A DNA stretch of 39,124 nucleotides, from positions 1 to 39,124 of the forward strand of contig MU271222.1 in the NCBI GenBank assembly GCA_021432655.1, given 5' to 3'. Under the pieces are notes generated by a model. It ran no database searches. It was not told where the DNA came from and saw nothing but the letters and a program-made list of their open reading frames with translations. The position numbers and the translations under genes are program-made. This document shows positions 1,383 through 25,582 of this stretch, piece by piece (the stretch's first letter is position 1; each line of letters begins with the position of its first letter). Source of the DNA: Atractiella rhizophila. Its lineage: Eukaryota.

Positions 1383-1389
1383 CCCTTCG
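1383..1389 (+). repeat. Left target-site duplication CCCTTCG
   Basis: The identical 7-mer directly follows the right TIR, at 11719-11725. Confidence 0.8.
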
Positions 1390-1417
1390 CCCTGTGGAAA
1401 GTCCAGGCTGGTTTTTT
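1390..1417 (+). repeat. Left terminal inverted repeat
   Basis: CCCTGTGGAAAGTCCAGGCTGGTTTTTT versus the reverse complement of the right end, CCCTGTGAACAGTCCAGGCCAGTTTTTT (24/28). Confidence 0.85.
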
Positions 1418-1640
1418 GAAGGATTACCAGGTCTGGTTTTTTACCAGAGTCCACTCCGGTGAAGTTGCAAGAATACCAGGTGGAAATCCAGGTAATTCAA
1501 AAGGGAGGACTGGTAAATTACCAGAGAGAGTGGAGCGGGGATGAAAGGACCGCACCTCGGTTTCCAGTGCTCCAGACTGGTTATTTACTTGTGTCCAGAC
1601 TGGACTTCAACAGGTAAATAACCAATTATTTTACCATCTC
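1418..1640. repeat. Left subterminal repeat field (TACCAG/CTGGT motifs in both orientations)
   Basis: Many ACCAG/CTGGT/CCAGG motifs. The quasi-palindrome GGTAAATTACC at 1512-1522 recurs at 11658-11668. Confidence 0.7.
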
Positions 1641-1961
1641 ACCCAGTTTCTGTTCGATATTCTCACAGGGACTCCTTATTTCATTACCGGGCACCGTATT
1701 TTCAAAATCGCCGCTCTTGCTCACATATTCTCGCACAAATATTGTCATAAAAAGAGAAATGATAATTGCAACCCAATGTTGTGTGAATCCCTGGTTCCCT
1801 CTAGACACAGGCTATCAGCCTAGCAACAAACAAAGCAAGTAAGTCGAAGGAAGACAAGCAAGAGAGCACGAACGGAGCCTGCTTTAGCAATCTGCTAATA
1901 CGACGCCTTCGCCTTCGCCTTTCCGCCGTTCGCGCGCCGCCTCGTCCGCCTTCTGCTCCCT

Positions 1962-4200
1962 CTATCCTGCTTCCACTCCGACTCCTTTCCAAGGCACAAT
2001 AACGATCTGCATGACCGAGTAACGAGTAATTAGAAGAAGACAACATTGAACAAACCTTGGTACAGTTTCTTGCGCATCGCCGTCGGAGCCTCCTCTTGCG
2101 CTTCGCGTCCTCCAAGTCCTTGTACAAAACTCGCTCGAACATCTCGATTGCTACAAATGAAGCCTACACCCGAGTTAGAGAAAGAAGATGATGAAGGTAC
2201 TGACATGACACAAGAATGAAGGTACTAACCTTCAACTGCTCATCACCAATACCCGGTCTGCTGCTCCACTACTCTCTTGACGTATTATCGGCTCGATTTT
2301 CATGAGGGTTCCTTGCATAAACGTAAGACAAACGAGTTAGAAGTTGTCTGTGAGAAGGCGAACCGAGATGGGCCGAAAGTGCAAAATGAGTGTTTGAAGG
2401 AATCTAAAGAATAAGGAGTGATATCAGCGTATGTCAAACGTTTGAAGCAAGGCAAAAACGTATAGAAATTGAAAGAAAATGTGCCACTTCTTCCTCAATC
2501 TTCAAGTCCCCCCTCCGCGGAACAGCTACACTTTCGAACCAAACCAAAGGTCGCGAAAACGATTTCCACGCCCACAAAACCATACTATATATTCTAAAAC
2601 ACTCACAGAGTGTGAAGATGCGGCTAGAGCACCTTCCCATCCCCTTGTACGTGTTCACTACATTCCTTCGAATTCCTTCACTCCGAGACCTTCCCATCAA
2701 CCGACGCGTCGCTACTTAGCTGGAGACATAAGAACCATCTAAGAATCCACATTCATTTGTCATAAAGGAGACCTGATGTTGAAATGGCATCGAATGTTCG
2801 TCGAGGCGGGGTTCCCAAAAAGTGCTGAAGGCGAGAAAAAAAACGCGTTTTTCGCATCAAAAACCTGCGATGGGGTGGGAACGAGATGGGGGGATGTCGA
2901 TATCGATTTAGGAGGATGATGCACGGGAATAATGCTGTTTGAGGGAGTCGAGGAGGAGTCGAGTTCGTCGATTTTGAAGTTTCAGCACGGTCTGAGACAA
3001 ATGTGGCCAAACAATCCTCGAGCAGACGACGGACGGAAAGTCCTCAACTCAACAACAGCTCCAGCTCCAGCGTAGCCTGAGCGGAGTACCTGAGTCAAAC
3101 TATTCGAAAGAAGGGCAGAAGATTGATGATCTGAAGTGGAAGGGTGGCGAGGTGATTCTCCGGTGTGTTTCTTGTTGACTTGACAGAGAAGTCGAAAAAG
3201 GGTAGCTTCTGCATTGTGGCCTGGGCATCTGTGCAGTGACAGGCGTTTACAGATGCGAAGTTTACACTTTGGAGACTTCTCTGTGCAAGGAAGTTCGATT
3301 CTCACTTTGTCTGATTGCAGCGCTGCCGCTGTGCAGGAGAGGGGCACAGGTATCTTCCTCAATCTGCCTATGCCTATACCTACCACAGCCTACCACGATG
3401 AGCAGCCCTTTTTGACGATGGACGGCGCTCTCGAATTAACTTCAGCCCATAACGATGAGTCCATCCTCCAGCACTGTGCCTAAGCAGAAGAAGATCCTCA
3501 TGTCTGTGGACTGAGAGCTATTGCAACAGTTTTGTAAAAGACAGAGAATTTCCTTCTGCTTTGGTACAGTATCTGGAGGTGTACAGGATTGGGATCTTTA
3601 TCTGGTATGGTCTTCCTCCGGTTTTTTTCTCTCTGCTGAAGATTTCTTGTGTTCGGTAGCTCTCATGCTCTCAATCGTCTCCACCATGACTTTGACTTTC
3701 CCCTCGCCATCTATCATCTTGCCACTGCCCGTCTTTCGTGGCTTCACAACGGTGCCTCTCCACCTCTCCCGCTCACTTTCCGCAGGAGCAGAATCTTCCG
3801 AGGCGTGGGTGTGGATGTGGATGGCGAAGTGCTGGTCTATTGGGCAAGTTCTCTCCCGTCTCGGAACTTGTTGAGGGCTACGACATGTCGACGGCCGCCT
3901 GGTGCCGAGAGATGGATCACAGAGATAAACCTCAACGGTAAGCTAAGTTCTTTCTTTTGTTCAGGCGTTAATATAACTCGCTCGTTTGTAGTCCCGACTC
4001 CGCTTTGCCATGGCCCACTTGCTCTCCCTTCCATTAGCCATTCCCGATATCAACCTCTAGCGAGCATCGGCAGGAGTCTCGTACGTTGAGATTTCGAAAC
4101 AACGGGATGCAATTATCGATTTGCGATGAGCTTATGAACATCCATGTCTGTTCTCACTCGCACTCGTTCAGGACTAATCGCTTCAAACAGTCTTTCAATC
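1962..4200 (-). pseudogene. Degenerate multi-exon gene of unknown product inside the element (5' limit uncertain)
   Basis: Canonical minus-strand introns 2229-2164 (GTTAGT..CTAAC..TAG) and 2055-2007 (GTTTGT..CTAAT..CAG) splice to ...DEQLKASFVAIEMFERVLYKDLEDAKRKRRL...KIVIVPWKGVGVEAG*. The upstream part has many stops. Confidence 0.4.
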
Positions 4201-4759
4201 ATACTCTGCACAGCATGGATTCTAGCTGGAGTTTGTCCCACATCCCACATGACAGGTATCTCCTCTCGCTTCTACCACCGTTGTGTGCTTTCTCCTTCTA
4301 ACTCATTCTCCTTTTAAGCAGTGTCCGATCTTTTTGGCATGATTCTCTCCATCCTCTCTTCATCCGCCCCTCCTGTTCGACCGAAACCGACTTCTCAACT
4401 CCCTGGGTTCCTGTCCCTCCGCAACTTCTCTTACCGACACCTCTCACTCTTCCGTCTCTTAGTCTAGTTGGCAAAAGTTAGAATCTGTAAAGATTTCCAA
4501 AGTGCTAGGTACTTTGGCTGGTTTATGAGCGGAAAAGTGTTTCAATGAGTAGTGGACCTTCGACTTCAATCCATTCCGAGTGTTCTCAATACAGCTAGTT
4601 CACGCACACCAGAAACTTGGGATATAAGCCATTCATTTCAACATTCTTTTGTTTCGGCTGCTAAGATATAATATGTACTTATGGATAAAGATATTTGGTT
4701 GTTCTGTCAATCTTGATTAGAGCATACAATGAAATGAAGAACTACTTACTATACTTGGA

Positions 4760-6217
4760 GCATTTCATTTCGCTTCTACCCTTGACGGCTTAGGCTTTCA
4801 CTTTCTTCCCGGTTTTCTTCTTCTTCTTGCTACTGCTTATTTCGGCTACCTGCGCCTCTTCTTCTCTAGCTCTTCTTTTTCTAGTCCTGCCTGCGACTCA
4901 TATATCCCCAGAACCAACCGTAGCGCGTGTGGTGCCCGTGCTGGGAGTGCTGATCACACCGTTGATGGCATTGCTTGTGCCTGCGATACCCTCGTTGGAA
5001 GTGCCATTGCTGGTGCTGATGGTGGGCAGAGTTGTGGCTGAGGTGGTTTCTTCATTTCCTGCATCAATGACCGCATCTACAAGGGCTTGCATAGTCTTCG
5101 TTGACGGCTGACTCTGTCTTGCCGGGTCGTTTTGTAGCCCAGTTAGGATGTGTTGACCATGGTCATGATTCGTGACGTCTCTGGCTCACAAAATCAGCTG
5201 TGTGATCTCACATTACAATCTTATCCACATACCCTTCACCAGAACTGCTCACCCTCACCGGTGCAGGATTGGAAGTCATTGGATCCTTCGGGATCTTAAG
5301 CCTGATTACTTGAGGAGCTACTATGCATTCCATCAATAAAGTAGGCATGTTGTGAAGCATCCAAACGAACCAACGATGGGACCAACGATGGTGCCATCAA
5401 CATCCTCTTCGTCGTCATCCGTTGTTACGCTCTGCTGGACTGTTAACTGCGAAATAATGTTTCAAAGTAAAAGACAGACTTTTTCTTTCCTCTTTTGCTC
5501 TCTAGCCGCCACCTTTGCATCGGTATGGTTCGCGACCGCATTCTCAAGAACACTTATAAGGTACCTCCTAGCTTTCTCCTCTCCCTCGCAGAGTCGGAAG
5601 ACCTCATGTCCGGCCATCAATCTTCGTATCGCCCAGGCTTGTGTTTCCTGCGAGAACTTGGTCCAGCGCACATTCTGCCCATTTACCGTCTTCCTCATCT
5701 CCAAGATGGTCTCGTCGACTAAATCCTTCACAATCTTCATAACCGGTGACTTGTGGATATAGTCACCATTCGCCATTTGGAGTTGCTTCCGAATCGAAGT
5801 CTTCCCTTGAATCCCTACTTCGATGGCTGCTTTCGTCCAGTACCGAATGTTGGGGAACTTCTCCTTCTCGTATGTGGGTGGAACACTGACAGAGGTGAGA
5901 GAAATGGGAGCCGGAAGGGAGGCTGAATGTGCGAATGGATTCGTGAAGTTTGATGCAGGCTGCATGGTACCGACTTTTTCTTCAAGAATCTTGACCTTGT
6001 CTTTGAGGAGCTCGATGACGGTCTCGTTTCCTGAAACAATAACTTGGAAGCTTGTCGTATCTTTCCAGTATTGAACATAAAGGGGATTGAACATGAGCTG
6101 TTCATGCGAAAGGTTGGAAATGGCTTGGGTTGAAAGATGAGGTGTAGCAAACTGTTGGGGAGTAGCAAACTGTTGAGGGGTGCTAGGAGTACCGGGGTGG
6201 AAGCTGGTAAAATCCAT
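4760..6217 (-). pseudogene. Transposon accessory gene (ORF2), divergent from the transposase, multi-exon, with downstream in-frame stop
   Basis: Long first exon starting MDFTSFHPG, with a coiled-coil-like stretch and EKFPNIRYWTK and FRLCEGEEKARRY motifs. Several GT..AG introns follow, then a T/S-rich region and a K-rich NLS-like end. There is an in-frame TGA at ~4898. Confidence 0.6.
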
Positions 6218-6373
6218 TTTCGTTGTTGAAGTAAGTGCAAACCGAGGTGGATGTACGAGAAAATTCCACTTGTGGCGTCGCTTGAGTAAATCTGTGCCGT
6301 AAAACCAAATCACATCAAGCCTGAGCCTGATTTTTCCTTGATCAGGTATTGCACCTCGCACTTTTACCAGGCA

Positions 6374-9300
6374 ATGTCGAGCATACACATTCCTGCAGGC
6401 AAGAAGCGTTGTGGTTGTCCTAAGCATCATGCTTCCCCTTTCATCGATAAATCAACTTATAGTCGTTGTTTCAAAAGCCACCAGCAGCGTGGAAAAGAGG
6501 CGGAATGGTTCAACTTCCAGCGAACAGACCTAGCTCAGGTATCTCTTGAGCCAACTATGTCGCAAAGAAGCCAGTTGTCAACTCCCAGCAGAGGTGAACA
6601 ACATTCTAGCTTCGACGAGTCTAGATCACAGGCGAATGAAACTTGTATGCAACAGATTTACCTATTTACTTTGTTTAAACCAAATTTAGATGGACCAGAT
6701 GAGGCTTCATCGTCTGCGAGTGAAGAAGAGAGCATGCAAAGTGAACCTGAGGCTCCAGATTCCACTAATCATCCTCCTTCCCCAAGGGAAGCTGCGGCAT
6801 CTCCTGCATCCTTCTCATTTATGCCACTTCAGCCTGAACCTGCTTCTCCGAACCTTTCAAGTTTTTTTGTCAACGAGGATTTTCTATTTTCTGATGGAGA
6901 CGATCATGACGATGACGATGAGAGCACAGGAGCCTTGCCCTCAGATGGCTTGGACGAGGATGATTTTCTGGAAATGGATGACTTTGATTCAACCCATCAA
7001 GGTGAAGCTTTCGAGTGGAATGATATGGAGTTTGAGCATGACCTTCCACATGCTGAAGATCTGCCACCACCACCGGCTATTGAGCTGGATGACGACGAGT
7101 TTTTTAATCTTTGCCTCTATCAGTGGTTTCGGGAGCACCCCGGAGTCACGCAAGTGGCTTTCGACAACTTGCTTCATCTCTTACAACATTTCAACCTTTA
7201 TAACAATTTGCGCTCTCGATATCGCAGTGAGAACATGGCAAAGAAACTTACTGGTCTTAATGGGAACGAGCGGGATTGCTGCATCAACTCGTGTATTGCT
7301 TATACTCGGCGGTATAAGGATACTTTGAGTTGTCCTCATTGTGGTGAGGCAAGATACGACGAACGGAGGTTGGCAGAGGGAAAGAACGTTTCTCGCAAGA
7401 CCTTCACTTGGCTCCCTCTTGCTCCTTGTATTCAAGCAATGTATCGTGCTACCTTTCGTGCTGAAGCCATGTTGTATCGTGCAAGGGCTACTGCAGCAAT
7501 GCGATCCAATCCAGACAAGCCCATTGAGGACTATATCGATTCAGAAAATTACAAGAGGCTCCTTGAACGGTTTTTCAGAGATGATCGAGACGTTGCCTTG
7601 CTCTTTTCATCCGATGGCGCTCAAATCTTTCGTGACAAGCACTCTGATGCTTGGCTTGTAATGTTGCTGAACTTGAACTTGTCTCCTGAAGAACGAGTTA
7701 AGAAGCACAACATGATTCTTGTCTCAATCATTCCTGGACCTAATAACCCTAAGGATATCTTTACTTTTCTTCAAGAACCACTGGAAGAATTGAGGAAGCT
7801 TGAGACCGAAGGTGTTCATGTCTGGGACGAGAAGGAGAGGGAATGGTTCATCTGTCACATATACCTTCTCCTTGGAGCGGCTGATATGCAGGGAAGCTCA
7901 AAATTTGCTTGCACTGTGGGTCCACATGGCAGGTGTGGTTGTAGCTCTTGCTATCTTATTGGTTATTATGCCGGAAAGAGTGGTTACTACTACGCTTTCG
8001 AAAACCCTACCGATGACCTTGAATTTGGGACAATGAGGCGAAGGAAGAAAAATATTCGCTGAAAGCAGTATTCAAGAGATTCACCACCTCCTCTACGTAC
8101 AGACGATACCTACGGGCGAGAAATGACAAAACTTTTGCTTGCAAAATCTCAAGAGGAGACAACAAAGCTTACCACCAAGTTTGGAATCGCACGAAAGACT
8201 CCTTTCGCCAGTTTCGATACTTTTATTTGGCCCTATTTCTTTCCAATCGATGCCATGCACCTTTTTTTTCAACTCGTTACACTTTTATGTTCAAGATCTG
8301 GCGTGGTGATGAGCAGATGGGTTTGAATGGCACGGAAGACTTTGTTATCCCCGAAGAAAGCTGGGAGAAGATTGGTATGCGTTCCATCTGTTGTTACAAG
8401 GTATACATCTGACAGTTCCTGGATAGGTATATTAATGGAGAATGCCTCTCGCTTTTGGCCAGCAGCATTTGGCGAACGACCTCACAATATCCACACTTCT
8501 TGGACCTCCTACAAGAACAAGGATTGGGCACAATGGTGCTTTATCTGGTCTCGCCAATTTTTGCCACACTTTTTACCCCCGATATATCTGGATCACTAGC
8601 TGAAATTCGTCAAAGCTGTGACAATCGCTTGCCAGAGACAAATTACCCATGAGGAGCTGCTCGAAATGAAGCACCTTTTTGAGGAGTTTCACGACGAGTT
8701 TATGCAGCTGTATTATCAGCGGAAGATCAAGCGCATCAAGATGTGCCGCATGGCTCTTCATCGCCTTTTGCACGTCTACGATTGTATTTTGCAAATGGGC
8801 CCTGTCTGGGTCTACTGGCAGTATCCGATGGAACGGTTGATTGGCCAAATGGTTCAATCTCTTCAGAATGTCACTCAGTATACGGCCAATTTAGTGCGTC
8901 TTATGCTTCACCGTGAACGCGTAAATATCGTCAACTGGCTCTGTCCAATCCCAAAGAGGGCCCTTGCGTCGAGCATTGCCTTTGAGAAGAGTAAAGTCGA
9001 CAACTCTCGTTTTTTGACTGTCAAGAGAGAACTGAACCCGTCGTTGGACAAGTCAGTTCGAGAAGATCTGGTGCGATTCATTTATTGGCAGTACAACAGT
9101 AAAGATTTTGCCGGTCTCATCGACGAGGATCTCAACTCAGACGTCTCAAGTAGTGATTCCGAAGACAGCACTTGCTCAAACATGTCAGTGGACACGACCC
9201 AGTCATCTTCTGAGGAGACCCAAGTATCATTTGGCAAACTGAGAGAGGTCGTTCGATGGGGAAATCTCAAGTTGGCGGGAAACAAGCAAACCATTCGCTC

Positions 9301-9825
9301 AATGTGGGTTGAGTCCGGTTGGAAGCGAAAGGAGCTTACGAGAAGTGCAACTTGTATCTCAGTGAGTGGTTGTTACCTTTGCACGACTCGTCTAATACCA
9401 TGCAGTTCGTTAATCGGGACAGGGAAACCAGTGAACTGCAAGGATACTTTGGCGTCGTGCAATTCTACCTCACTTGTCGGTTTCAGGACCACTGCTTCCA
9501 GCTCACATTCGTTACGGTTGTAGATGATCTGAGAGGAGAAGTTGAGCGAGGCGATCTTTCCTGCTGCTTTTCTGACGAGACACCTCGAAGGAATCGCTTC
9601 ATTGACATTGGGACAATTAAAGGTCTTGTTTCTATCTTTCCTATTGATGAGCAGCTGTTAGAAGCAAACTCCAAGTCCGAGGAAGAAGAAGATATAGAAG
9701 AGGAAGAGAGCGGACAGTTTGAGGAAGATTGGGAGAACACACGGCAGGCTGTTGGGCAGCAGAGATATGGGATTGCTTGGAAGCATATGACCCTGCTCGC
9801 AAACTTGGAGTCGGATGATGACTGA
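6374..9825 (+). pseudogene. CACTA/EnSpm transposase (Transposase_21/tnp2 family, DDE), disabled
   Basis: Motifs CINSCIAY..CPHCGEARY, LLFSSDGAQ, IIPGPNNPKD, AADMQG, FFPIDAMHLFF, GPVWVYWQYPMER and FGVVQFY. Introns at 6645-6689 (probable), 8375-8426 and 9362-9404. Lesions: TGA 8060-8062, a frameshift at the T-run ~8262-8270, and TAG 8597-8599. Confidence 0.92.
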
Positions 9826-10084
9826 GCTACTTACATGGGTACCGGGTTTATTGTTTTTATTATGTTAAAGCAATAAAGAGATTGACAATCACTTCTTTTT
9901 GTATATATATGCCGTCTGCTCGCCAATTTCCATCCAAGATCAAGGAAGAGGTTTGTTGTCCGGCATGGGCTGAATGGACTGTGTCTCGGAGTGGGAGAGG
10001 ACTGATTACGATGGAAAAGACTAGGCGGCTAGTGTGCATGTGGCATGGGAGTGAGCGACGGTGGACGAGGGGCGGATGCAATTC

Positions 10085-11410
10085 AAGGAACTGAATAACC
10101 CTCAGCAATTGAGTGCTTTTGACTGTGGCCACACTCACTTGTCTTATCTCCTTAGCAAGCTCGCTCCGTTTCCCCCCAGTCCGCCGCTGCGTGAGGTTAT
10201 CCGGCTAGAATTCGAAGAGGTCATGCTCATTGTGAGATAAGGCTTAGAAAGAGGGGATACTGACTTATCACAATACTCCAACATCCATCCTGCTCCCTGT
10301 GCTGTTTCCATCTGACCTAGCGGCTAAGCTTCAGAGTCTATCAAAGTCGAATCGAGATTCAAGAACGACAAAGGTGAGGTGGAGAACAACATGGCCAGTG
10401 CACGGACAATCTTCTCGGTAGGGGTGAACCATTCGAACGAAGCTCTTTGTGGAGAAAGAGGTGGAAGAGGAAGCGAACAGAGAGACGGGTGGATGATGGA
10501 TGGGTGCAGTGTTAAGGTATCGAGATGTTGGAAGAGATTTGTGAAATGAGAAAGTTCAGCGCTGCCCCCCACGTAGTTTAGGATGGAACCGGCCGGTTAA
10601 ACTTGAGCAAGAGAGGACACACCTGGATAGTGGATCGTATTTATCATGCAGGCAACCAGCGTCAATCCTTCTTCTCCAATCAACTTGTATAGTTCTCCTA
10701 AGTACTCGTCGCTTCTCCTGGTCATGGCTACGTGATGGCTCATTGGAAGTCGATGGAGATGCCTTGGGGTGTCACGGTTTCGAAGAAGCCTGTTAGCAAC
10801 GGAGCTTCAAGAATCTAATCTGCCCCAAGATGAAGGCCGTCTTCTCTCTCCTGCCAACGGCGCCGAAAGTCTCAATTGCGATTTCTTGGATGATCCGTTA
10901 TGCTTCTGCCACCCCTCCCCTAGGAAGATCTGTTATCATATCAATCCGAAATCAGCTCCTCAGTGCGTAATGTAAGTATAAGAAGAATAGGGAAAAGCGA
11001 ACCTTTCCTTCCGTAACCATCCCTCAGACAGACCGTCAGTCCCTCTCTCTCATCCTCCTCTGCCTTTCCCGCCTCCCAAACCTCCATCACCGCTCCAACC
11101 ATCTTCTTTGTGCTCTCCCTAAGTTGTCCATGCTTCTTACTCAACGCCTGAACCTGCTCCTTCAGTTCATTCCAGTCTCTCCTTTCACTCAACAACTTCA
11201 CGATCACCAAAAGCATTCGTGTCGTCGAAGGCTGGTCAGATGCCGAACTGGTTTGTTTTCGAGAGCGAGAAGGGCGGAAAGCGCTTCTTAGACCCGTAAA
11301 ATTCTCTATTCAGCATGTTTTGAGCCCTGATAAGTAGAGAAATCGTGACAAACATTGGGAACGGCTAGCAATTCGTATCAGCTCGTCCACCTGGCTCGCG
11401 AAATCAGCAT
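10085..11410 (-). pseudogene. RPN5: Captured, decayed copy of the 26S proteasome lid subunit Rpn5/PSMD12
   Basis: Collinear Rpn5-like segments on the minus strand: DFASQVDELI, EALSALLALE-KQT..ASDQPSTTRMLL, LSKKHGQLRESTKKMV, VTEGK|IFL (across an intron), IIQEIAIETFGAVGRREKTAFILGQIR, SRIT..ETER. Frameshifts and stops occur throughout. Confidence 0.85.
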
Positions 11411-11499
11411 GCAACAGTTAGTTCAGCCTGGCATTTCTGCTCCAAGGAACAACTACTCACCGAGGTGCGTGTACTACTTGATCCTGATTGAACTCGGGG

Positions 11500-11690
11500 T
11501 GTCGTCGCAGTGGTTTTGCCTGCAGAAATGTGAATCATTGAATACTGGCTTCCCCAGTAAAAAACAGCTAAAAAAACCTGTTTACTCACCAGTAAAACCA
11601 GGCTCGACGTTCCCGCTTTCTCGCCCGGTATTGGTTCATTTTTACCAGCCTTGCCCAGGTAAATTACCGGCACTAAAAACCAGTGGTCAA
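11500..11690. repeat. Right subterminal repeat field
   Basis: Repeated ACCAG/CTGG motifs with A-tracts; GGTAAATTACC at 11658-11668. Confidence 0.7.
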
Positions 11691-11718
11691 AAAAAACTGG
11701 CCTGGACTGTTCACAGGG
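11691..11718 (-). repeat. Right terminal inverted repeat
   Basis: Its reverse complement matches 1390-1417 at 24/28 positions; it ends CACAGGG. Confidence 0.85.
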
Positions 11719-11725
11719 CCCTTCG
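11719..11725 (+). repeat. Right target-site duplication CCCTTCG
   Basis: Identical to 1383-1389. Confidence 0.8.
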
Positions 11726-12620
11726 GTGTCCCCTTTCACTTCACTTTGACGTGCCACCACACGACGAAGCGCAGAGGCACCCAACCACCATTCGAAGCAG
11801 ATCTACTCTCGCTACGCCGTGACAAGAGCGAATATCACATCGTTTTCTCCCCCTCTTCCCTCCCCTTCCTGCTTCACTTTTATCCAGACTGAGCAGCTGG
11901 AGCAGCTCGTGGACAGGTTGGTCAGTGGATGCGGCAGTGAGAGGAGAGGGATGGAGAGGGAGATCGGTTGGGTTGAGGTGGAGAGGGAGGGGTTGCTGCT
12001 GGGGGAGAGAATCCGATCTGAGCTTATGCATATCCTGAGGAGGAGGAAGGTGAGCACGGCAGTGGACGGGAGCGGAAGGGAGTGGTGGACAACAAATCCC
12101 AGCACCTGCCCCTATCACTCTTCGACCAGCAGGCCAACAAGTGACCATTCAAAGGCTTCTCTGTGGGACATTGGCATGGACGACCTCCGTCTTCTCAGCC
12201 GTCCTTTACACCCATATTCTGTCCCTTTGACGAGGAATGCATCGCGTGACCTAGCTGTCGCCTTCACCATTCACCTCTCTAACTCCCCCTCGTCAGCTCG
12301 CAGGAACCTCGTGGGATATTTGAGAAAAGGCGCCTTTATGTTAGATGACAGGCAAGCTTCCAGAATTGAGGACGGGGAAGAAAATAGACGGAAATTGAGA
12401 GTAGACATGGAGATGGAGAGGGATGGAGAGGAAATGGAGGATGAGAGGTGAGAAAATTTGAAGAAGGGTCTCGCGGAGGAAAGAGAGCGAGATGGGAGGC
12501 GGTCTGCGAGAGAGCCGGTGCAGCATCACATCGGTACTGCTTCTTCCGAACGAGGACTATTAGCGAGGGTGGATGATGATGAGACAGAATGGGGTGACTC
12601 TCTGGTTGCCGAGTAAAGGC
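11726..12620 (+). pseudogene. 5'-truncated copy of family 'Y' (open stretch 11819-12451)
   Basis: Its reverse complement aligns with ~20570-21460 and ~28090-28935. Shared peptides include HILRR and DIxMDDL. Confidence 0.6.
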
Positions 12621-14833
12621 TGGGAGATGTACGTTAATCGACTCTGTTGTGAGTCGTCCATACTTTGACACTCTTTCGTCTTCACTGCTGATTCCTTGGG
12701 ATGGGATGGAGCAAGGTTGTCCCCATCGTTGAAATTTTACCGGTTTATCCAGAGTGGAACGATTCACATAAGCATGTGGTTTGTACGCCTCCCTTTCCTA
12801 AGACAAGTAGACAATGAAGATGGCAGTCAGACTCAGACTCTGGACAACTGACCGTCGGAATGGAATTCGAAAAATGGCACGCCTTGTGCTGTCTGGTGCC
12901 CCTCAAGCCTCAAGCATTATTCGCATCTCAAATCAGATAAACAACAAAACATCATCACACGAAAGACTCCCCTACCACGCTTTGTTTAGTACCTTGCAAT
13001 GGTCTTCGTCACCATCACCATGTGAAGTTATAGAACGTTTCCCCTTCTTCAGCGCCAACTCCCTTCCGTCATCTATTTTGTCGGAGTATCATCTTTCGCT
13101 GGATTATCTCCTTGCTCTAAGTTGCATTGCTGCTGCGCTGCTACCAGATGGGTTATGCAACTGACGTGCGTGTATTATAGTCAGAACGGCTGTTTAACAT
13201 GCAAAAGCTCCGCTCCCCGAACACGCCGTACTCGCAGACTGGATCACTTTCGGCTTGGGAGTGGAAGAGGTTGAGCAGCACCAGTGCCACTCAGCATCAA
13301 CAACCTTCTCAGACCTCTCCATCCTTACGAACCATCTGAAACTGGAGTGAGGAGCAGAGTTGCAGGGGTTCGAGGATCTGTGAGAAAGGAGACCTGGCCG
13401 ATAGCTCGAGTGTCGAACCAGAGATTGAGGCAGAACCTCTCGTTGGGAAGGGAGGAATGGGGTATCATGCCTCTCCATTTACTCAAGGACGACGAGCCAG
13501 TCAGAGACAGACCTTCCACGAATCTGCTGATAACATCTCTCCTCATCCCTCCGTTCCCAGCTCTAGTATGACCCCCCAATGATGCCTCATGCTGAAATCC
13601 CGTTCCGAATGCTCCCAACCCACTGGACCCTCGCCATTTCCGCTTCTGACCAAATGATGAATTGAGGTGTTGTGCTCAGCATCAGGAGTACTTAGGTTGT
13701 ACATATGAATACTTTCAGTGTTTATGGACTGGTAGAAGACAGTTCGTCCACTCTTTCGGTCATTTTGGCATGGGTTGAGTGTGTTGGATCATGGACTTCT
13801 TCCCATTCTTTCCCAGCTGGTGGTTATTGGTCTCTTCACTGTGCTCTAGTTATGTCTCACATTTTGTTTTGTTCCATTCTTAGCCAACGCTGTCCGCTCA
13901 TATAAACCTCGTCTCAGTTCACTGGATTCCCCATTGTCTTCCATCATTGTGAACGATTGGATAATCCAGGTTTGCTCTCACTATTTAGTCCTTTGCATTG
14001 CTCATTGTCTCCCACCATTGTGAATGATCAGGGAATCCAGGTTCTATCAGAGCAGAAAAAGGCTTTTGTGAATGATAGCACCAATTTCCTCCTGTCCCCT
14101 TTCCTTCATCTTTCCAGCGTTCGTGGCAAATCCCTGCTTGATTTTAACACCGCCGACATCTAATAGAATGATTGCACCATGCTAGGCGCATATATGTGCT
14201 GCACAATATGGTATGGCAAGATTTCACAGGTATGTACAATATTTCTCTATGTCCCACTCTGTCTCTGTCCCTTTCTCCTGCCCTAACCACTGTTGCTACA
14301 GGTTTACTTTGTTTCTCACCATATTGACGTCTCTCCCCTATGTCCAACACTAGCAATGGGACATGGCTCTCCTTCCTTCAAGTGCAGCTAAGCCGATTTT
14401 CTCAGTCATCGAACAGTTTCGTTGTACACTATGAGTTGCCTCCTCATGTTCCTTTGTACCTTTAAGTCAGAATAAATTAAAGAAATCGTTTCCCCCCTAT
14501 TTCATTTATCTGTGAACACTTTATGACTGCTCTCTCCAGGGCGGGCAGAAAATAGGTGGACCAGGTTTGAAAAGCTTAGTAGCCCCATGAGGCGCTCGGA
14601 TGCAAGTCAGTAAGTGCTGCGTGCAGCAGGAATGTCACCGGATGATCATGTTTGAGCTCGACAAAGACCCTCCTAAACTTCGTTCAGGTCGGGGATGTCT
14701 GATGTCTGTTGGTGTCACTCCTGTCTAGCAATAGCTGCTTGATCCTCAAAATGTTCTTTACCCTCTCTTGAAATGCACTGTCTTTACTGCTTGAAATTGC
14801 TGCTGCTCTGAGTCTGTATCCTACAACGTCCCT

Positions 14834-15290
14834 TCAAGTCCTCCATCTCCCATTTCCTCTGCCTCTCTGCCCTGTTCTTTCTCTCCTTAGTACTGCGACC
14901 TCATACTGATCCCACATCGCCTGTGCAATTCTATCCCGCTCTGCTAATGCTCGCTGATACTCTGCACTGCTAACAGAACTTCTTCCTAGTGACCCGGCAC
15001 TGCTGTTTCTGTTCCGATCCCGCACTGCAGCCTCTTGAATTTCTGCATCGAGGGTCTCGAGCTCGAATTCGTTGATTTCAAACGGCTCGTAATGTAGTAT
15101 GAAGTTATGAATCAGACAGAGAGCGGGGATCAGAGCGGCCTAGCCAAAGAGTTAGATGGGCCACACATGCACAGATTGAAGTTACAAACCTGTGTTTCAA
15201 ACTTGTATTCTCACATCAGTTCAAGGATGGCAGAGCGCCGCTTTATCACTCCAAATGCTCGCTCAGCTGCATTAGTGATGCCCGAGTGGT
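14834..15290 (-). pseudogene. C-terminal remnant of a PIF/Harbinger transposase (DDE_Tnp_4-like)
   Basis: HSGITNAAERAFGVIKRR..IL..Q [intron 15189-15140] AALIPALCLIHNFI ... RDRIAQAMWDQY is the typical Harbinger C-terminus. It has an internal stop and lacks the N-terminus. Confidence 0.85.
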
Positions 15291-15301: not shown

Positions 15302-15940
15302 TGTAATCTAAGCTTTTGCCTTGCCTGGCTAGTGAAATGAGGGCACTAGTCCCCTCACAAGTTCTTTCCAAGTTCACAGCCACCCTCCATTAATCATGAG
15401 ATACTGAGAGTGACATGAGACCCCGTTATAACGCGACTACAAGGAGTTGGCAAGGCTCCAGATAGTGGTGGGGGTTCGAAATATGATAGTCTAAAACATG
15501 AGTTTCATAGTATAAGAACAAGAGCATGAGGATATAAGCATAAGTGAGACAAGCATACCAAAAACACTCGAAGAGTCTACGGAGCTGGGGACAGTGGAGA
15601 AGGCTTTGGCAAAGCCCTAAAATACCACGGACTAACTAAGTGGAGAAAGAGGGTCAAAAGAAGAGTACAGACCCTCTTTGAGTGTTTTAGAAACGAGGGG
15701 TACATCAAACTTACAGAGAAGAGAAAGGAGACCTTCGAAGTGTACTTGAATGAGCACAGCACAACTACTGAGAGAAGGTACTCATCTCACACACAGCACT
15801 AGTACCTCAGTACAGCCAAGCTCAAGAGATGGTGGTTGTGTGTGAGTGAAAGAAAGGGGTCATGGAAGCAACACTGCGACGAAAGAGAAATGACTCATAA
15901 AGGTAACGAAGAATTGACCATTTATGTTATTTGTATTACA
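15302..15940. mobile_element. Solo LTR, 639 bp
   Basis: Begins TGTAAT and ends ATTACA (6-bp inverted termini). Flanked by CTCGT (15297-15301) and CCCGT (15941-15945), a 4/5-matching 5-bp TSD. Non-coding; the Harbinger homology stops at its edge. Confidence 0.7.
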
Positions 15941-17570
15941 CCCGTAGTCTGATCCCATGTCTCCCAGCACCAATTCTCACCAGACTCCCAGACTCCCAGA
16001 CACCTGACCCCTTGCTAGCTTCTCTATACTCCTTCAGCATACTCCTTGCAATCACGATCTCCACTTCACTCCACTCTCCAAAGAATAACACAACAAAAAG
16101 TTTCATACACTCCTTCTCCATCCGCCTCACCTGCCGATACCCAAAGAACCAGCGGATGAAGTCTGGGAAGTCGAATGAATCCACCACACAGTACCAGAGC
16201 GTCATATAGCGTATCGCCGTTGCATTTGTGAGGGTGCTGAAGAACTGGCGAGAAACGAGTTTTGACGTTTCTTCACCCCCATCGAGGATCAGCTTGGTGA
16301 GGTGTTTGAGGTGCGAAAAGTCGAGCGGAGTGGGTAGGATGGAGGTCTTTCCATTGACAGAGAAGGGAGCAAGCAGGACTCTGAGCTTTTCTAGAAGAGG
16401 CGGCAGAGGGTAGTTGGAGATGGAGGATGGGAGTGGGCACATATGCACGAGTGAGAGGCGCTTGAGTGTGTGTGGGAGGGACAGTGATGCAAGAGGCGGG
16501 TAGCTGTAAAGGTGGAGGTGTTCGAGGCGAGAGGATAAGTGAAGTCCTGTCGAGGCTGAAGCAGGAGAGTCCTCCACGTTGTGAACAGTGAGCCATCTGA
16601 TCCTGTTACCCATCCTCCACATAAAGTCGTCAATTTCCTCGATCCTCCACTTTCTTGAACCACTTCCAAACGTGACATCATCCACCCGTTTCAAGCCTTC
16701 GACTGCATTCAATACAATTTTCGCCTCCTCTTCATTCCAAAATGCACCCATTATCACCATTGTGACACCTGGCGAGCCTACGATGACCTCCTTCGCCATC
16801 CCAACATCTATGCTTTTGTTAATCCTCAGTTCGTTCCACAGTCGTCCGGCACCAGGATAGCGTTTCAACAGCTCGTACTTTTGCACCAAAGAATCAGGTT
16901 CGCCCAAATAAGGAGCTGAAACTTCCCTCCAGACCTTGGATACGTCAGAGATGGTGGAAGCGTCGGCGGAGAAACTGAATATGAGAGAGAGGAGCTCCAC
17001 AGGCAAGCGCGAGATGGAGCAGAGAGTAACATCTGTAAGTGGGACAGAGAGCTGGATGATGCTAGCTGTCCGGAGGGATGGGGGCAATGATGATTCATCC
17101 TCACTGATGAGCAGGAAACGGTCTTCATGTTCGGAGTATGAGGCAATGGGGGCGAATATTGCATTCTCGCAACAGAAAGTAAATGTGCCATATGAGGCAT
17201 TCGAAAGCCACGTGTATCCTTGCCACGTGTCTGCTTCAACTTCCAAACAGGTTATTTTGAATCTCTCGTAGCCGATGGTAATGTAAAGCTTGATTACACC
17301 ATCCTTGTCGACCCCATTCTCGACCGGTTCAAGTGATAAATAAAACAATTTTGACACTATCTTTACAAGGTTCCCCCTGAATATTGAAGGATATACGACA
17401 CACGAAATCCTGACTGTGTGAATTGACGAAGGTAGGCGAGATAGGAAAGAGGGAAGAATGGAGAGGTGAATTGAATTGGTCTCATCGCTTGGGGTCATGA
17501 GGTGGACAAGTGCCTTCGAGTTTGGTTCCTGAGAGGCATGGCAAAGCCCAGCCGTTTGCTCCTCCGTCAT
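15936..17570 (-). CDS. F-box-like + LRR-like protein, copy 1 (544 aa)
   Basis: Open ORF with an F-box-like motif (ISRLPVELLSLIFSF..ISDVSKVWREVS) followed by LxxLxL repeats; paralogous to copies 2 and 3. A possible upstream exon at ~17923-17678 would splice in frame. Confidence 0.8.
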   Translation of the reverse strand: MTEEQTAGLCHASQEPNSKALVHLMTPSDETNSIHLSILPSFLSRLPSSIHTVRISCVVYPSIFRGNLVKIVSKLFYLSLEPVENGVDKDGVIKLYITIGYERFKITCLEVEADTWQGYTWLSNASYGTFTFCCENAIFAPIASYSEHEDRFLLISEDESSLPPSLRTASIIQLSVPLTDVTLCSISRLPVELLSLIFSFSADASTISDVSKVWREVSAPYLGEPDSLVQKYELLKRYPGAGRLWNELRINKSIDVGMAKEVIVGSPGVTMVIMGAFWNEEEAKIVLNAVEGLKRVDDVTFGSGSRKWRIEEIDDFMWRMGNRIRWLTVHNVEDSPASASTGLHLSSRLEHLHLYSYPPLASLSLPHTLKRLSLVHMCPLPSSISNYPLPPLLEKLRVLLAPFSVNGKTSILPTPLDFSHLKHLTKLILDGGEETSKLVSRQFFSTLTNATAIRYMTLWYCVVDSFDFPDFIRWFFGYRQVRRMEKECMKLFVVLFFGEWSEVEIVIARSMLKEYREASKGSGVWESGSLVRIGAGRHGIRLRV

Positions 17571-19500
17571 TTTTTGAGAAGAGGCAGCAAACTAGAACCC
17601 ATAACCCATGTTAGATGAGGAGAAGAAGGTGGAAGTTGGAGACGAAATCATGCCTGGGTGGTGTCATCAGCAGGGTTTACCCTCCTCCTTACACTCCTCG
17701 TCTTGATGGGATCGAAACTGTGACGAAGCTTGATGAGAAGGAGCCAAGGTCCCAACTGTGAGCTGTGAGACTGCCTTGACAAATAGTTTGTGGGAGAATC
17801 AAGGTGAAAGGCAAGATCGATGTCTCGTTTTGTAGTTGGGGGATTGAAGGACGTTGCCTGCTTTGTAGGTGATGTGGAGAACTCGGACTTCAGCAGGACG
17901 ACCGTCTGGTTCGTGTTGGGCATAGAGAAACGACCTTCTTTGATTAATGAACAAAGCGATTCAAACAGAGCGAGCGGACTGACCTAGATTGGTCAAGCTG
18001 TTTAGTGGGTGGATGGACAGGTCCGTACCGAGATGCCGTGGTTCAATTCTCCTGGCTTCCCACACGGGACCATAGCAAGTCGAGCTACTTCATAACTTGT
18101 TCTGAGGAGGAAGAGAAGTACTGATCGAAGCCGCTTTCGTTGAGAGTAGGTACTGTAGGCAAGTGGGCTGGCGGAGGACAAAGGAAGGTAGAGGGAGTTG
18201 ATCCATCGATGTACGAGTGTTCGGAAGAATGTTCAAATGAAATGGTCGCCCTGATCAGGCTTGAATGGAGGGAGCTCCAAGAGCTACGTCACAGGTAAAT
18301 TGCTTGTTGATATGATGATGTCGCCGCCAAAGAGCCAACAAAACAAACAAAACACATCGTAGCATCCGCAATTCCGTCCACAAACGACAAAACAAAGTGT
18401 TTCAACCGGCGTGAAATGGGAAGAGATCCTAGTCCCGGGACATCTTACCATGTCAGGGACAGGGACAGAGATTGGGGAGAGCGGAAAAACGATGACCGTG
18501 ACCGTGAGGGCAGTGATAGGAGGAGGAGGAGGCGTAGTGTAGAGCATGAGCGTGAGAGGGACAGAGAGAGCAAAGTGGAGCGTACGTCATTCCATACTGG
18601 TTGAGAACGGTGGTTCATGCGTATTAGGGTCGCGTGAACGTCACAGCCACGGGGAGCGAGATGGAAGGAGACGCTCTCGTTCTATTTCCAGAGAGGGGCA
18701 GAGGCGGAGGAGGGAGATGTCCCGCTCCCGCTCGAGGGACAGAGATAGGAAGGGGAAACGCTCCCGATCTCCAGGTTTGTCTTTCCTCACTTTTCTGTTC
18801 AATGTATCCTCGTATTGAACCAAACGTGAATGGGCAGAAACGCGCTCGCGCTCTTCCACCTCATATCGTTGACTAAAGAAAAAGAAGAAGGAAAAACGAC
18901 AGGACGAGACACTGCTGAGCGTGCGGCGAGGAAGGAGAGGGAGAGGGAGAAGAAAGCGATGAAGGAAGAGAAGAGGAAGAAGGAGGAGGGTGGGGGTGGG
19001 GGAGTGGAGTGGGGAAAGTATGGCGTTATTTCTGAATCTGGTTCGTCTTCCTCCTTCCTCCCTACGTTCTTTCTGTCTTGTGAATGTTGGGTAGTGAGAA
19101 TTGATGGACGTTACGGGTGGAACAGACATATTCGAGAAGGAAGAAGAATTTAGGCCCTGGTTGGTTGAAGAACGCTTTACTAACCCAGAAACACTTCAAA
19201 TCCACAGAAAAAGAGACCTTCGTCCAAAACTACAACACCGCCACCCTCCAAATATTACTCTCTTGCCTCTCCGCACTCCGAATGGGCGAGTCGCTCGTCT
19301 CCACTCCGAGACCTACGATGCGAGGGCGGATGAGGAGGCGTTGAGGAAGAGTTTTAGGAGAGGAAGGAGGAGGATAGTTTTAGAAGTCGGGAGAAGTTGG
19401 AACAGTTGAGGAGGATCGAGAGGGGAGAAAGCGGAGAGAGGGAAGATGGAAGGGTGGGGGATGAAGGTTAATGCTAACGTGGCAGTGAAATACGACACTG
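15990..19500 (+). repeat. Segmental duplication, paired with ~30770-34400 (F-box gene + intergenic + RS-rich gene)
   Basis: Long collinear similarity that includes non-coding DNA (17570-18300 vs 32424-33150). Confidence 0.9.
18416..19500 (+). pseudogene. Pseudogene copy of the RS-rich gene at 33288-34410
   Basis: Same exon/intron layout (MGRDPSPGTS, VEWGKYGVISES, DIFEKEEEFRPWLVEERF), but deletions and frameshifts disrupt the last exon. Confidence 0.85.
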
Positions 19501-20529: not shown

Positions 20530-21930
20530 CGATACTCCATCCTCACAGACCGCCGCTCAATCATTATCACATCACATCACCCTCGCTGGGTACCCTCGTT
20601 CAGCAAGATGCTGCACCGACTGTCTCCCACACTACCTATCTCTCGTCTCCTTCCCTCCTCTAGACCCTTCTTCAATCCTTCCTCATCCTCTCCTCCCCCT
20701 TCCCCAACATCACTTCTCCGTTTCCACGTGTACTCTCCCACATTCCATTCATTCTCCTCCGCCTGGTGCATTCCAGAATCTTGCCAATGACCACCCACTC
20801 CTAAAAACGACATGAGAAAGGGAGGAAGCGTGCCCCTCACCGAATATCCAACGTTGTTCCTGCCGGCAGGAGAGGATAGTCGGTGAGGAGATTGTCGAAG
20901 CGGAAAGATGGACGCTCGACGCATTCCTCGCTACTTTGTCAAAGTAGAAGGGGGAGCTATCAGATAGGAGGGACGGGATTTGAGGCGGACAGGATGCTTG
21001 AGAGGAGGTCATCCATGCGAATGTCCTCCAGAGAACCCCGTTGAACGGTTATGTGATGCCCTCAGGCGAACGAGGAGAGAAACGGTGCGTGGTGGGATGT
21101 TTCCACTCCTCTCCATCACTGCCCTTGCTCCAGTCCTCACCTTCCCCTTCTCAGGATGTGCACATAGCTTGAAACAGATCCTCTACCTGGTGACACGAAC
21201 CCGCTTCGATCAACCCATCTCCCTCCTCGTCGATCCTTATCCTCCCTCTGCGGCATCCTCAAGCTTTCTACGGACTGCTCCAGCCGGTCTATCTAATGAA
21301 TATTGAATAAAGCGAAGGAGGAAGGAGCGGAACGACGGGGAGGATACGGCATTTGCTCTTGTGCGACGCGAGCCGATATTCCAAAGGGGCCTTAAAGGCC
21401 CTTGCGGTATCTCGGTTGGTCTTACGTCAAAGAAAGGGAAAGTGAAGGAGACACGGACGGGGAAGTGACGGAGAGGGTGGATGGGTAGAGATGAAGTTTG
21501 AGTGCAGTATGGAGTTGTGAGGGGGCGAAGGGAATGCCTCGAGGAGAGCAAGTTGCGGTTCGGAGGGTCGACGAAGCGCATTGGGGGGGCGAATGCCTAG
21601 TTGAACAAAGTTGGAACCAAGGAAAGCAGAGGAAGGAATGCCGCTGAAAAGTGCTCACTCAAATTCCACCGTTTGTAAGTTCTCGATCATGGACGGCGAG
21701 TTGAATGACGTAGTTGATCCTCCGCCACGTCCGAGTTAGCTGTCTCCCATCCCGCCTCGCCTCGACCTTCCTCCGGCTTCCATCTTCTCCTTCGGACTCC
21801 TTCGGGTACTCTACTCCTGACTCCAGCGCTGCACACCTCCTGCCGGCTAGAAAGGTTCTTCTGCCGCCATGCTCCTCCGAACTGTCACCTTTCACGCTCA
21901 AGCAAGTGAGCGAGCACACAGCGCACTCCA
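20530..21930 (-). pseudogene. Family 'Y' copy, heavily decayed
   Basis: Homologous to 960-1382, 11726-12620 (inverted) and 28030-29200; multiple stops. Confidence 0.55.
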
Positions 21931-24010: not shown

Positions 24011-25582
24011 CTATTCGTCCCCTTCCCCTGGCTCCCAAATGCCTGAACTCGGGCTCTTCCTGTACTTTCCCATCACACTCCTCGCAATCGCAATCTCCTC
24101 CGCACTCCACTGTCCAAAGAATAAACGAACCTCAAGATGTTTCCCTATCTTCTCTCCATCCTCCAGATGACCCTTCTCGATCCCCCTCACCCGCCAATCC
24201 CCAAAGAACCAGCGGATGACGTCTGGGGAGTCGAAGGAGTCCACTAAACAGTACCGGAGTGATATCCGCTTTATGCCCGTTGCATTTTTGAGGGTGCCAA
24301 AGAACTCGCGGGAAACGAGGTTTGACGTTTCTTCGCCGCCGTCAAGGAGCAGCTCTGTGAGGCTTGTGAGGTGTGATAAGTCGAGTGGAGTGGGTAGGAT
24401 GGTCCTCTTTCCATTGGCGGAGAAGGGGCCCAGCTCGATCTCGACATGTTCCAGAAGAGGCGGCAGAGGGTAGTCTGAGATGGAGGAAGGGAGTGGACAC
24501 ATATTGCAGACTTCGAGGTGTTTGATGGTGTGTGGGAGGGAGAGCGATGGTTGAGGCGGGTACTTATAGAGGTCTAGGAATTCGAGGCGAGGTAAGCGAA
24601 GACCTGCTGAGGCTGAAGCCGGAGAGTCTTCCACATCCCAAGCTTTGAGCTGTCTGATCCTGTCACCCATCCTCCACACAAAGTTTTCGATCTCCTCCTT
24701 CCTCCACTTTCTCGAACCGCTTTCAAACATGACAGCATCCACCCGATTCAAGCCTTCGATTGCATTCAACACAATCTTCGCCTCCTCTTCATTCCAGAAT
24801 GCACGCATCCGCACCAATTTGACAGCCGGCGAGCCCATGATGACCTCTTCCGCCATCCGAGCGTCCATACTTTCGTAAAAATCCAGCTCTTCCCACAAAC
24901 GTCCTATACCGGGATATTGTTTCAACCACTCATACTTTGTTGTCACAGAACCAGGTTCCTCCCAATAAGGAATCGCAATATCGCTCCAGAGCTTGCACAC
25001 GTTGGAGAGGATATGAGCGTTGTTGCAGAAACTAAATATGAGACAGAGGAGCTCCACAGGCAAGTGAGAGATTGAGCGGGGAGTAACATCTGGAGTTGGG
25101 ATGGAGAGTTGGATGATGTTAGCTGTGTGGAGGGATGGGAGGGATGACGATTCGTCGTTACTGATGGGGAAAAAGCCTTGTTCGGAGTATAAGGCCATGG
25201 GGGCGAATATGGCATTCTCTCGAGGGAGAGGAAACCTGCGAGTGTGTGGCTTATAAGACCTATCTCTTTTGAGAGCTGACAGATGCCCTTCGAACTCCAA
25301 AAGGGTTACTGTGACATTTTCACGGTTGATGAAAATGCAAAGGTTGATTACACCATCCTCGTCGACCCCATTTTTGACCCGTTCAAGTGATAAATGAGAT
25401 AATTTTGAGATAGGCACCCACCTCCCGTCCAATGAATGAGATAAGATCAACGAAATCTCGAGTGTGTGCACTGACGAAGGCAGGCGAGATAGGAAAGACG
25501 GGAGAATAGAGAGGTCGATCCTGTTGCCGCTGTTTACTGGGGTGATGAAATGGACCAGTGCCTTCATCTTTTGAGAAGACAC
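24011..25582 (-). CDS. F-box-like + LRR-like protein, copy 2 (~520 aa; first ATG at 25567)
   Basis: Open ORF with ISHLPVELLCLIFSF..LSNVCKLWSDIA, LxxLxL repeats and the conserved LDGGEETSNLVS and LFFGQWS motifs. Confidence 0.8.
   Translation of the reverse strand: MSSQKMKALVHFITPVNSGNRIDLSILPSFLSRLPSSVHTLEISLILSHSLDGRWVPISKLSHLSLERVKNGVDEDGVINLCIFINRENVTVTLLEFEGHLSALKRDRSYKPHTRRFPLPRENAIFAPMALYSEQGFFPISNDESSSLPSLHTANIIQLSIPTPDVTPRSISHLPVELLCLIFSFCNNAHILSNVCKLWSDIAIPYWEEPGSVTTKYEWLKQYPGIGRLWEELDFYESMDARMAEEVIMGSPAVKLVRMRAFWNEEEAKIVLNAIEGLNRVDAVMFESGSRKWRKEEIENFVWRMGDRIRQLKAWDVEDSPASASAGLRLPRLEFLDLYKYPPQPSLSLPHTIKHLEVCNMCPLPSSISDYPLPPLLEHVEIELGPFSANGKRTILPTPLDLSHLTSLTELLLDGGEETSNLVSREFFGTLKNATGIKRISLRYCLVDSFDSPDVIRWFFGDWRVRGIEKGHLEDGEKIGKHLEVRLFFGQWSAEEIAIARSVMGKYRKSPSSGIWEPGEGDE

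Follow-up and report, generated by a model that had tools for sequence, protein, structure and literature searches.

Transduplication, in which a transposon takes up host gene sequence and multiplies it, is well known in plants. Described fungal cases include hAT and Tc1/Mariner transduplication in Pyrenophora, where histone H3-like genes are found in an autonomous element of 5.6 kb as well as in a recombinant form of 2.3 kb (PMC3538342), hAT transduplication in other Dothideomycetes (PMC6710886), and gene capture by Helitrons in the basidiomycete Pleurotus ostreatus (PMC4289320). Here, we describe an element of Atractiella rhizophila in a stretch of 39,124 nucleotides (GenBank assembly GCA_021432655.1, contig MU271222.1, positions 1 to 39,124 of the forward strand; hereafter the window), where a Tnp2/EnSpm-like transposon carries, between its ends, a decayed fragment of the host gene RPN5, which codes for a subunit of the proteasome lid. 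In the reading that we favour, with a probability of about 0.82, a 10.3-kb cut-and-paste transposon captured DNA from the 5' end of RPN5 and then spread this cargo, together with a deletion derivative, to at least seven loci. The process is transduplication with a Pack-type deletion derivative and as such a new example of a known process; an earlier note on this DNA had taken gene capture to be much less familiar from fungi than from plants, and the published hAT, Tc1/Mariner and Helitron cases make it less unusual than was assumed (PMC3538342, PMC6710886, PMC4289320).

The hAT elements with histone H3 genes in Pyrenophora tritici-repentis and Pseudocercospora fijiensis (PMC3538342, PMC6710886) resemble the A. 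rhizophila element in that a cut-and-paste fungal transposon holds the sequence of a housekeeping gene between its terminal inverted repeats (TIRs), and in that a long form with transposase and a shorter deleted form, both multi-copy, exist while the original gene is intact. They differ in the carrier, which is here Tnp2/EnSpm-like and housed in a Pucciniomycotina basidiomycete, in the cargo, which is there the whole coding sequence and here an intron-bearing 5' fragment that amounts to 36% of it, and in copy number, which is about ten here and tens to hundreds there. Plant Pack-CACTA or Pack-TYPE elements (Catoni et al. 2018, PMC6379663) are non-autonomous, related to the EnSpm/CACTA clade and loaded with a piece of a chromosomal gene, a description that the 3.4-kb derivative reported below fits. 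In contrast to them, the A. rhizophila cargo is found in the transposase-bearing form as well, the ends are not CACTA, the flanking repeat measures 7 rather than 3 bp, and the element is known from sequence alone. The Pleurotus Helitrons likewise captured host gene fragments and spread them through a basidiomycete genome as DNA transposons; they are, however, rolling-circle elements with another mechanism and without TIRs or target-site duplications (TSDs) (PMC4289320). In the literature covered, which leaves most subscription journals outside, we found no case of capture by fungal EnSpm/Plavaka-type elements no such case from the Atractiellomycetes, and no account of Atractiella transposons.

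The cargo was delimited with P0001, a 498-amino-acid (aa) A. rhizophila Rpn5 carrying PF22241 and the PCI domain (PF01399), as tblastn query against the window. On the minus strand, residues 10-122 match 11408-11019 and residues 123-188 match 11017-10799 (E 2e-51 for the two together), and PF22241 (PSMD12/CSN4 N-terminal) is recognised in the open reading frames (ORFs) 10941-11309 (E 7.4e-18) and 10793-10897 (E 3.3e-6), which cover profile positions 11-88 and 123-152 of 218 in two different frames; the helical domain is thus partly present. The RPN5-like coding sequence that the earlier note had read is therefore there, but it is not the near-full-length gene at 10085-11410 that was claimed: only about the 5' 36% of the protein is represented (179/498 residues), and the true span is about 10799-11408. 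The piece lies 310 bp inward from the right end of the element, downstream of the plus-strand Tnp2 gene and convergent with it, an orientation that had been recognised correctly.

The same note had let the similarity run on to the PCI region, which the following results do not bear out. For Rpn5 residues 189-498 tblastn gives no match in 9830-10798 at E<=10, no ORF within 9830-10800 matches PF01399, none of the 14 ORFs of at least 45 aa in that interval has a Pfam match at E<=0.01, and two of its ORFs compared with P0001 by BLASTP reach a best E of only 0.074. The ORF behind this value (9860-10204, against residues 137-187) was rejected as chance level after chaining against shuffled sequence, as were weak colinear tblastn matches to residues 186-437 from a permissive search: the best colinear chain of weak matches in 9830-10798 reaches 152 bits against a median of 141 for 100 shuffles, 26 of which equal or exceed the real chain, so that 10085-10798 is without Rpn5 similarity above chance. 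Blastn detects no internal duplicate of the RPN5 piece in 9830-10798. Three contig sets were aligned to the window (X1, X2 and X3, the contigs of the first two being DNA), and one diverged X3 contig can be followed in the alignment as far as 10625; the captured RPN5 DNA may extend to this position, perhaps as intron.

Within the fragment a 73-nt GT..AG intron is retained. In P0004 and P0005, two of the short gene models introduced below, VTEGK is joined to IFLELE as in the parent protein. A second interruption of 60 nt, beginning GTTTGT (11353-11294), and a branch-site-like CTAAC preceding the G10 codon were read by eye. Because intron sequence is retained, the RPN5 piece was copied from genomic DNA and not from mRNA, which bears out the intron remnants and the DNA-level capture that the earlier note had proposed. 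The fragment has decayed in several ways: TAA replaces Gln at 11290-11288 and Ser at 10900-10898, a 1-nt indel lies at about 11251-11260, a surplus base at 11017 is missing from all contigs there (X1 1/1, X2 1/1, X3 3/3), and a deletion of about 52 nt after IFL (about 10921) has removed the codons for ELERARLTRRLSAMLEAK. Even after splicing the frame is interrupted, by two TAA stops, at least two frameshifts and the ~52-nt deletion; these lesions make the fragment a dead pseudogene.

The element that encloses this fragment is placed at 1390-11718 (10,329 bp). A scan for all inverted pairs of at least 24/28 returned 22 in the 39-kb window and none in 20 shuffles; two of the 22 are the TIR pair in adjacent registers and the other 20 fall inside the similarity of a local repeat family, R. 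A flanking direct repeat of 7 bp is found only at the 1390/11718 register, with 5 bp one base outward and 0-2 bp in the other 20, and the flank context of the insertion, written as the expected empty site, reads ...GTTGTCAAA CCCTTCG GTGTCC... with the 7-bp repeat as the putative TSD. Two independent lines place the right end: the similarity of the adjoining R repeat to its paralogue copy at 27964-28935 breaks at 11719, and an X3 contig aligned over 11719-12648, with a single mismatch across 930 nt, ends there as well. The motifs CTGGT, ACCAG and TACCAG are about tenfold enriched in 1390-1800 and 11400-11718. The fragment hence sits inside the transposon, within the TIR pair 1390-1417/11691-11718 and, as the earlier note had it, between the 3' end of the transposase and the right subterminal repeats. 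Exact-pattern scans of metagenome contigs for the TIR and for a 32-nt subterminal stretch gave no matches, and the empty-site joint 1382/11719 is not among the joints listed.

Two other pairs were considered as ends and rejected, namely a 20-nt inverted pair at 6383-6402 and 11516-11535, whose left arm lies in the first transposase codons, and the inverted similarity of 828-1224 and 12760-12363, which is the old R repeat and is not contiguous with the 28-nt TIR. The R repeat itself is about 1 kb long and present in four copies in 39 kb that are 65-73% alike and without Pfam-recognisable coding; the transposon adjoins exactly the end of one R copy, and an inverted R copy lies 106 bp beyond its other side.

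Between the TIRs, ORF 6290-8062 matches PF02992 (Transposase_21/tnp2) with E 2.7e-17, scoring 63.1 where the cut-off is 28.6 bits. Between 7088 and 9415, proteins of the Tnp2 family keep to one frame, and one homologue, P0012, aligns in it over 7241-8947 through three stops (31% identity, 578 columns, E 5e-79). This Tnp2-type transposase is presumably the enzyme that moves the element. The in-frame stops (TGA 8060-8062, TGA 8324-8326 and TAG 8597-8599) render the copy in the window defective; position 8598 is G in all contigs (X1 4/4, X2 2/2), giving TGG for Trp, and other transposase copies appear to be open there. The stops at 8060, 8324 and 8597 are TGA or TAG only, each where a Trp codon would fit, and differences between window and contigs are mostly transitions, a pattern that agrees with decay mainly through G-to-A transitions. 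Pfam scans of the ORFs between the TIRs found no further transposase domain, and a scan of 64 ORFs from the two non-transposase parts of the element, with 4 further ORFs, gave no matches. For the second ORF of the element (5465-6217), the ESM Atlas returned only uncharacterised fungal clusters, with a best score of 0.90.

Two features of CACTA/EnSpm elements are present, the Transposase_21 (tnp2) transposase and subterminal repeats near both ends, and two are absent, the CACTA or CAC..GTG termini and the 3-bp duplication, in whose place one insertion shows the 7-bp CCCTTCG. When the window was scanned for CAC..GTG inverted ends accompanied by duplications of 2-3 bp, no pair rose above chance level and none had a flanking repeat. 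We label the element Tnp2/EnSpm-like and not CACTA because the termini and the duplication length do not agree with CACTA; the CACTA assignment of the earlier note is not supported, since the transposase is Tnp2/EnSpm-like but the ends are CCCTGTG..CACAGGG with a 7-bp flanking repeat. Pfam holds a Plavaka model, and no Plavaka-named family occurs at E<=0.1 among the matches of the window ORFs. In the fungal EnSpm/Plavaka-type 'CMCT' clade, TSDs are reported to measure 2-5 bp and ends to be CA..TG, CAC..GTG, TGT..ACA or CATCA..TGATG (Kojima 2025, PMC12730594). The A. rhizophila element shares with this clade the Transposase_21/tnp2 transposase and the subterminal repeats, and TGT..ACA termini of the kind described there for PlavakaA lie 3 nt inside the proposed ends, at 1393 and 11715 (PMC12730594). 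PlavakaA termini with a 2-bp duplication were rejected as the ends of the element: they would be flanked by CC on one side and GG on the other, and 3 nt further outward still belong to the inverted repeat.

That the cargo has moved with the element is seen from other copies, a check that the earlier note had recommended and that came out in its favour. Every top-ranking protein hit of the RPN5-like ORF is an A. rhizophila sequence. In a length-matched protein search, seven short gene models of this species came to light (P0003-P0009, 81-173 aa), all with the RPN5 fragment and each on a different contig; exact 6-mers served to place them on the window. Identity to the window fragment is 93-100% for six of them and 78% for the seventh; the full-length Rpn5 proteins stand at 88%. 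Nine substitutions from the MLLVIV motif onward are present in 8/8 element-borne sequences and in 0/2 full-length proteins, and a tenth, R to S, in all 5/5 element-borne sequences that cover the site; these common private substitutions indicate one capture followed by amplification. Element sequence adjoins the cargo in six of the seven models. P0003-P0006 begin at window positions 11639-11595, within the right subterminal repeats, before entering RPN5 (their start region, MNQYRARKRERRAW, is 11639-11598 on the minus strand), and P0004-P0006 additionally match 11520-11458 in the right subterminal region; in P0008 and P0009, RPN5 runs directly into the left arm at 4034-3846, minus strand.

DNA contigs of X1 and X2 (one contig in each, with a 30-nt side) hold a corresponding joint, 4035/G/10930, which has one filler G and skips 6,894 bp; by eye, the Q codon at the P0008 junction contains the filler base. 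The right breakpoint, 10930, is the 3' end of the retained intron. The deletion derivative, 1390-4035 plus G plus 10930-11718, measures about 3.4 kb and keeps RPN5 residues 10-128 and the intron; being non-autonomous, it is by definition a Pack-type element. Further variation is seen among the copies, as 18 codons lost from the window copy are kept in P0004 and P0005 and the deletion is common to the window, P0003 and P0007, giving at least three structural variants of the element-borne cargo. Contigs of about 99% identity bridge 3985-4958, 8716-10151 and 10183-10959. Contig depth, which is a weak hint and not copy number, is ~850-1900 over 10100-11600 and ~1000-2700 over 2049-3361, compared with 231-325 over 4414-7330 and 121-144 for two zero-difference flank contigs. 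Of the features of Pack-type elements, the cargo between TIRs, the intact parent, the dispersed copies with the same cargo and the transposase-less form are all found; TIRs together with a TSD are seen for the window copy, one insertion.

The parent is represented by P0001, an intact A. rhizophila Rpn5 with PF22241 and PF01399 that is 88% identical to the fragment at the protein level. A second full-length Rpn5 model, P0002, lies on a different contig and differs from P0001 in 3 residues over the first 326; past residue 326 it has frameshift-like stretches and no PCI match, and it may represent a second locus or a damaged duplicate, or else a haplotig. At the Ala in RRLSAML, P0004 and P0005 agree with P0002 and not with P0001.

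From these observations we infer an order of events and a mechanism of capture. A Tnp2/EnSpm-like element would have taken up approximately 0.6-0.85 kb of the 5' end of RPN5 as DNA, introns included, reaching roughly from the start codon as far as codon 188 and in the orientation opposite to the transposase. The probable route is a template switch, or aberrant repair, while the element was being excised or a gap repaired, as is put forward for plant Pack elements (PMC6379663). The cargo would then have diverged from its parent, gaining some ten amino-acid changes and one or more stops, and an internal deletion by an event resembling non-homologous end joining would have produced the non-autonomous derivative. 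Afterwards the element and at least one derivative would have multiplied, with single copies decaying since and intact RPN5 (P0001) persisting.

Capture by the transposase-bearing element has to be weighed against the idea that two unrelated repeats are superimposed, an RPN5-bearing element (about 10100-11718 plus 1390-4035) having been invaded by a Tnp2 block (about 4036-10000), in which case the transposase element never captured RPN5. Such nesting would account for the depth of the contig with the 4035/G/10930 joint, 872 in X1 and 418 in X2 and several-fold above that of the transposase contigs (231-354), for the zero depth on 4670-9338 in X3, whose contigs cover both arms, and for ends and a 7-bp repeat that are atypical for the Tnp2/EnSpm clade. 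The interval 4036-10929, however, has neither TIRs nor a flanking duplication of its own, and its ends, AG..AT with one filler base, have the look of a deletion scar rather than of an empty site. RPN5 residues 129-188 are absent from the short form and present in the long one, so the long form is ancestral for the cargo, and no other transposase domain was found between the TIRs; we regard the nested arrangement as distinctly unlikely. Lower still in our estimation, to the point where we would hardly entertain it, is a resident RPN5 pseudogene from an old duplication lying between or beside independent transposon insertions, the case that the earlier note had named as decisive against itself. 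RPN5 duplication does occur, as the two full-length models P0001 and P0002 attest, and the region of the window is rich in local duplications. Yet on seven contigs the fragment, recognisable by its common private substitutions, is joined to identical parts of the element, contigs of ~99% identity reach from the 3' part of the transposase to 10151 and, starting at 10183, into the fragment, and a single TIR pair with its 7-bp duplication encloses transposase and fragment alike; the linked copies and the enclosing TIRs exclude the case.

Cargo spread by the element might still be more than inert. A 76-aa core (MLLVIV...GLTV) is stop-free in 8/8 copies, with P0009 deviating over a short stretch, the annotation has gene models on the fragment at seven loci, the transposase and the fragment face each other in convergent orientation, and X3, probably an RNA run, has contigs on 10673-12006. 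All this could be taken to mean that selection maintains the fragment as a truncated Rpn5 N-terminal peptide or as an RNA, antisense or small, acting on RPN5 or on the transposase. The copies are, however, 93-100% alike, which makes the open core uninformative on selection; the frames upstream and downstream of the core vary among copies and the stops are shared; the X3 signal includes true RPN5, a loose end at 10839 reading, by eye, as the parent sequence SFILEQMR; and the contigs carry no strand information, with no run recorded as RNA. A selected function of this kind seems to us very improbable. Somewhat less remote, and still unlikely, is that the element belongs to an undescribed Tnp2/EnSpm-related lineage with 7-bp duplications and CCCTGTG..CACAGGG ends, whose inward RPN5 cargo drives transcripts antisense to the transposase or small RNAs against RPN5, so that the cargo would be regulatory and not inert.

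Several points weigh against capture and spread by the Tnp2/EnSpm-like element as we have set it out. The TIRs and the TSD are assigned from a single insertion, the window copy, and the introns and capture breakpoints are placed against the parent protein, not against the DNA of the parent locus. P0007 is 100% identical to the window and possibly the window's own model, which would reduce the other loci to perhaps six. For the transposase no A. rhizophila model was found, the best matches being 36-38% identical and from other sources; contigs on the transposase part are fewer or shallower than on the arms, with none from X3 on 4670-9338, and the arms could belong to a family mobilised by something else. 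Finally, the 7-bp duplication and the CCCTGTG ends do not fit the range given for EnSpm/Plavaka elements (PMC12730594). The features of the element and of its immediate surroundings are collected in Table 1.

Table 1. Features of the RPN5-bearing element of A. rhizophila and adjoining repeats (window coordinates)
Feature	Position	Strand	Remarks
R repeat copies	794-1276; 11719-12760; 20558-21372; 27863-28935	+; -; +; +	
Left 7-bp direct repeat CCCTTCG, putative target-site duplication	1383-1389		identical to 11719-11725
Left terminal inverted repeat, CCCTGTGGAAAGTCCAGGCTGGTTTTTT	1390-1417	+	24/28 against the reverse complement of 11691-11718
Left subterminal repeats, CTGGT / TACCAG motifs, short hairpins	1400-1660		TACCAG 4x in 410 bp, compared with 0.23/kb window-wide
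Left arm, kept in the deleted derivative, without recognisable coding	1390-4035		0/50 ORFs with Pfam match
Second ORF, 251 aa, divergent from transposase	5465-6217	-	no Pfam match
Tnp2/Transposase_21-type transposase gene, broken	6377-9825	+	frame change near 9313-9523
Spacer between transposase and cargo, part of the repeated element, source unassigned	9830-10798		10625-10798 possibly RPN5-derived; ~99% contigs over 8716-10151, 10100-10700 and 10183-10959
Captured 5' RPN5/PSMD12 fragment, pseudogenised	10799-11408	-	residues 10-188 of 498
Retained RPN5 intron, 73 nt, GT..AG	11002-10930	-	between K128 and I129 of P0001
Right subterminal repeats, ACCAG motifs	11540-11690		P0003-P0006 start inside
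Right terminal inverted repeat, minus-strand CCCTGTGAACAGTCCAGGCCAGTTTTTT	11691-11718	-	
Right 7-bp direct repeat CCCTTCG	11719-11725		perfect match to left copy

Beyond the element, the window contains three paralogous long ORFs of 525-578 aa on the minus strand (15936-17591, 24011-25588 and 30709-32445), which sit in segmental duplications arranged in tandem, with 74-81% likeness across 1.5-3.6 kb, and which, by eye, we take to be leucine-rich-repeat or F-box-like. Contig depth at these three ORFs is the highest in the stretch aligned, which suggests that they belong to a large gene family. At the end of ORF 15936-17591, four X3 contigs and none in X1 or X2 skip 62 nt (17592-17653; GC..AG on the minus strand); the skipped segment looks like an intron, and because it is skipped in X3 only, X3 is taken to be RNA-derived, which its record does not state but this pattern suggests. 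An X2 contig that aligns from about 14923 is preceded by telomere-like (AACCCT)n, and a relative of this segment may adjoin a chromosome end. Nearby, at 14834-15139 on the minus strand, lies a 101-aa ORF whose terminal motif may resemble the C-terminus of PIF/Harbinger-type (DDE_Tnp_4) transposases.

The A. rhizophila element represents a clean fungal transduplication: genomic DNA of an essential housekeeping gene was taken up, and the long form is preserved beside a short form of Pack type. For the annotation of this genome it means that seven or more 'hypothetical proteins' in which a PSMD12 N-terminal domain is recognised are cargo of a transposon and not paralogues. Should the 7-bp flanking repeat be confirmed on further copies, the range of target duplications known from this transposase clade would become wider.

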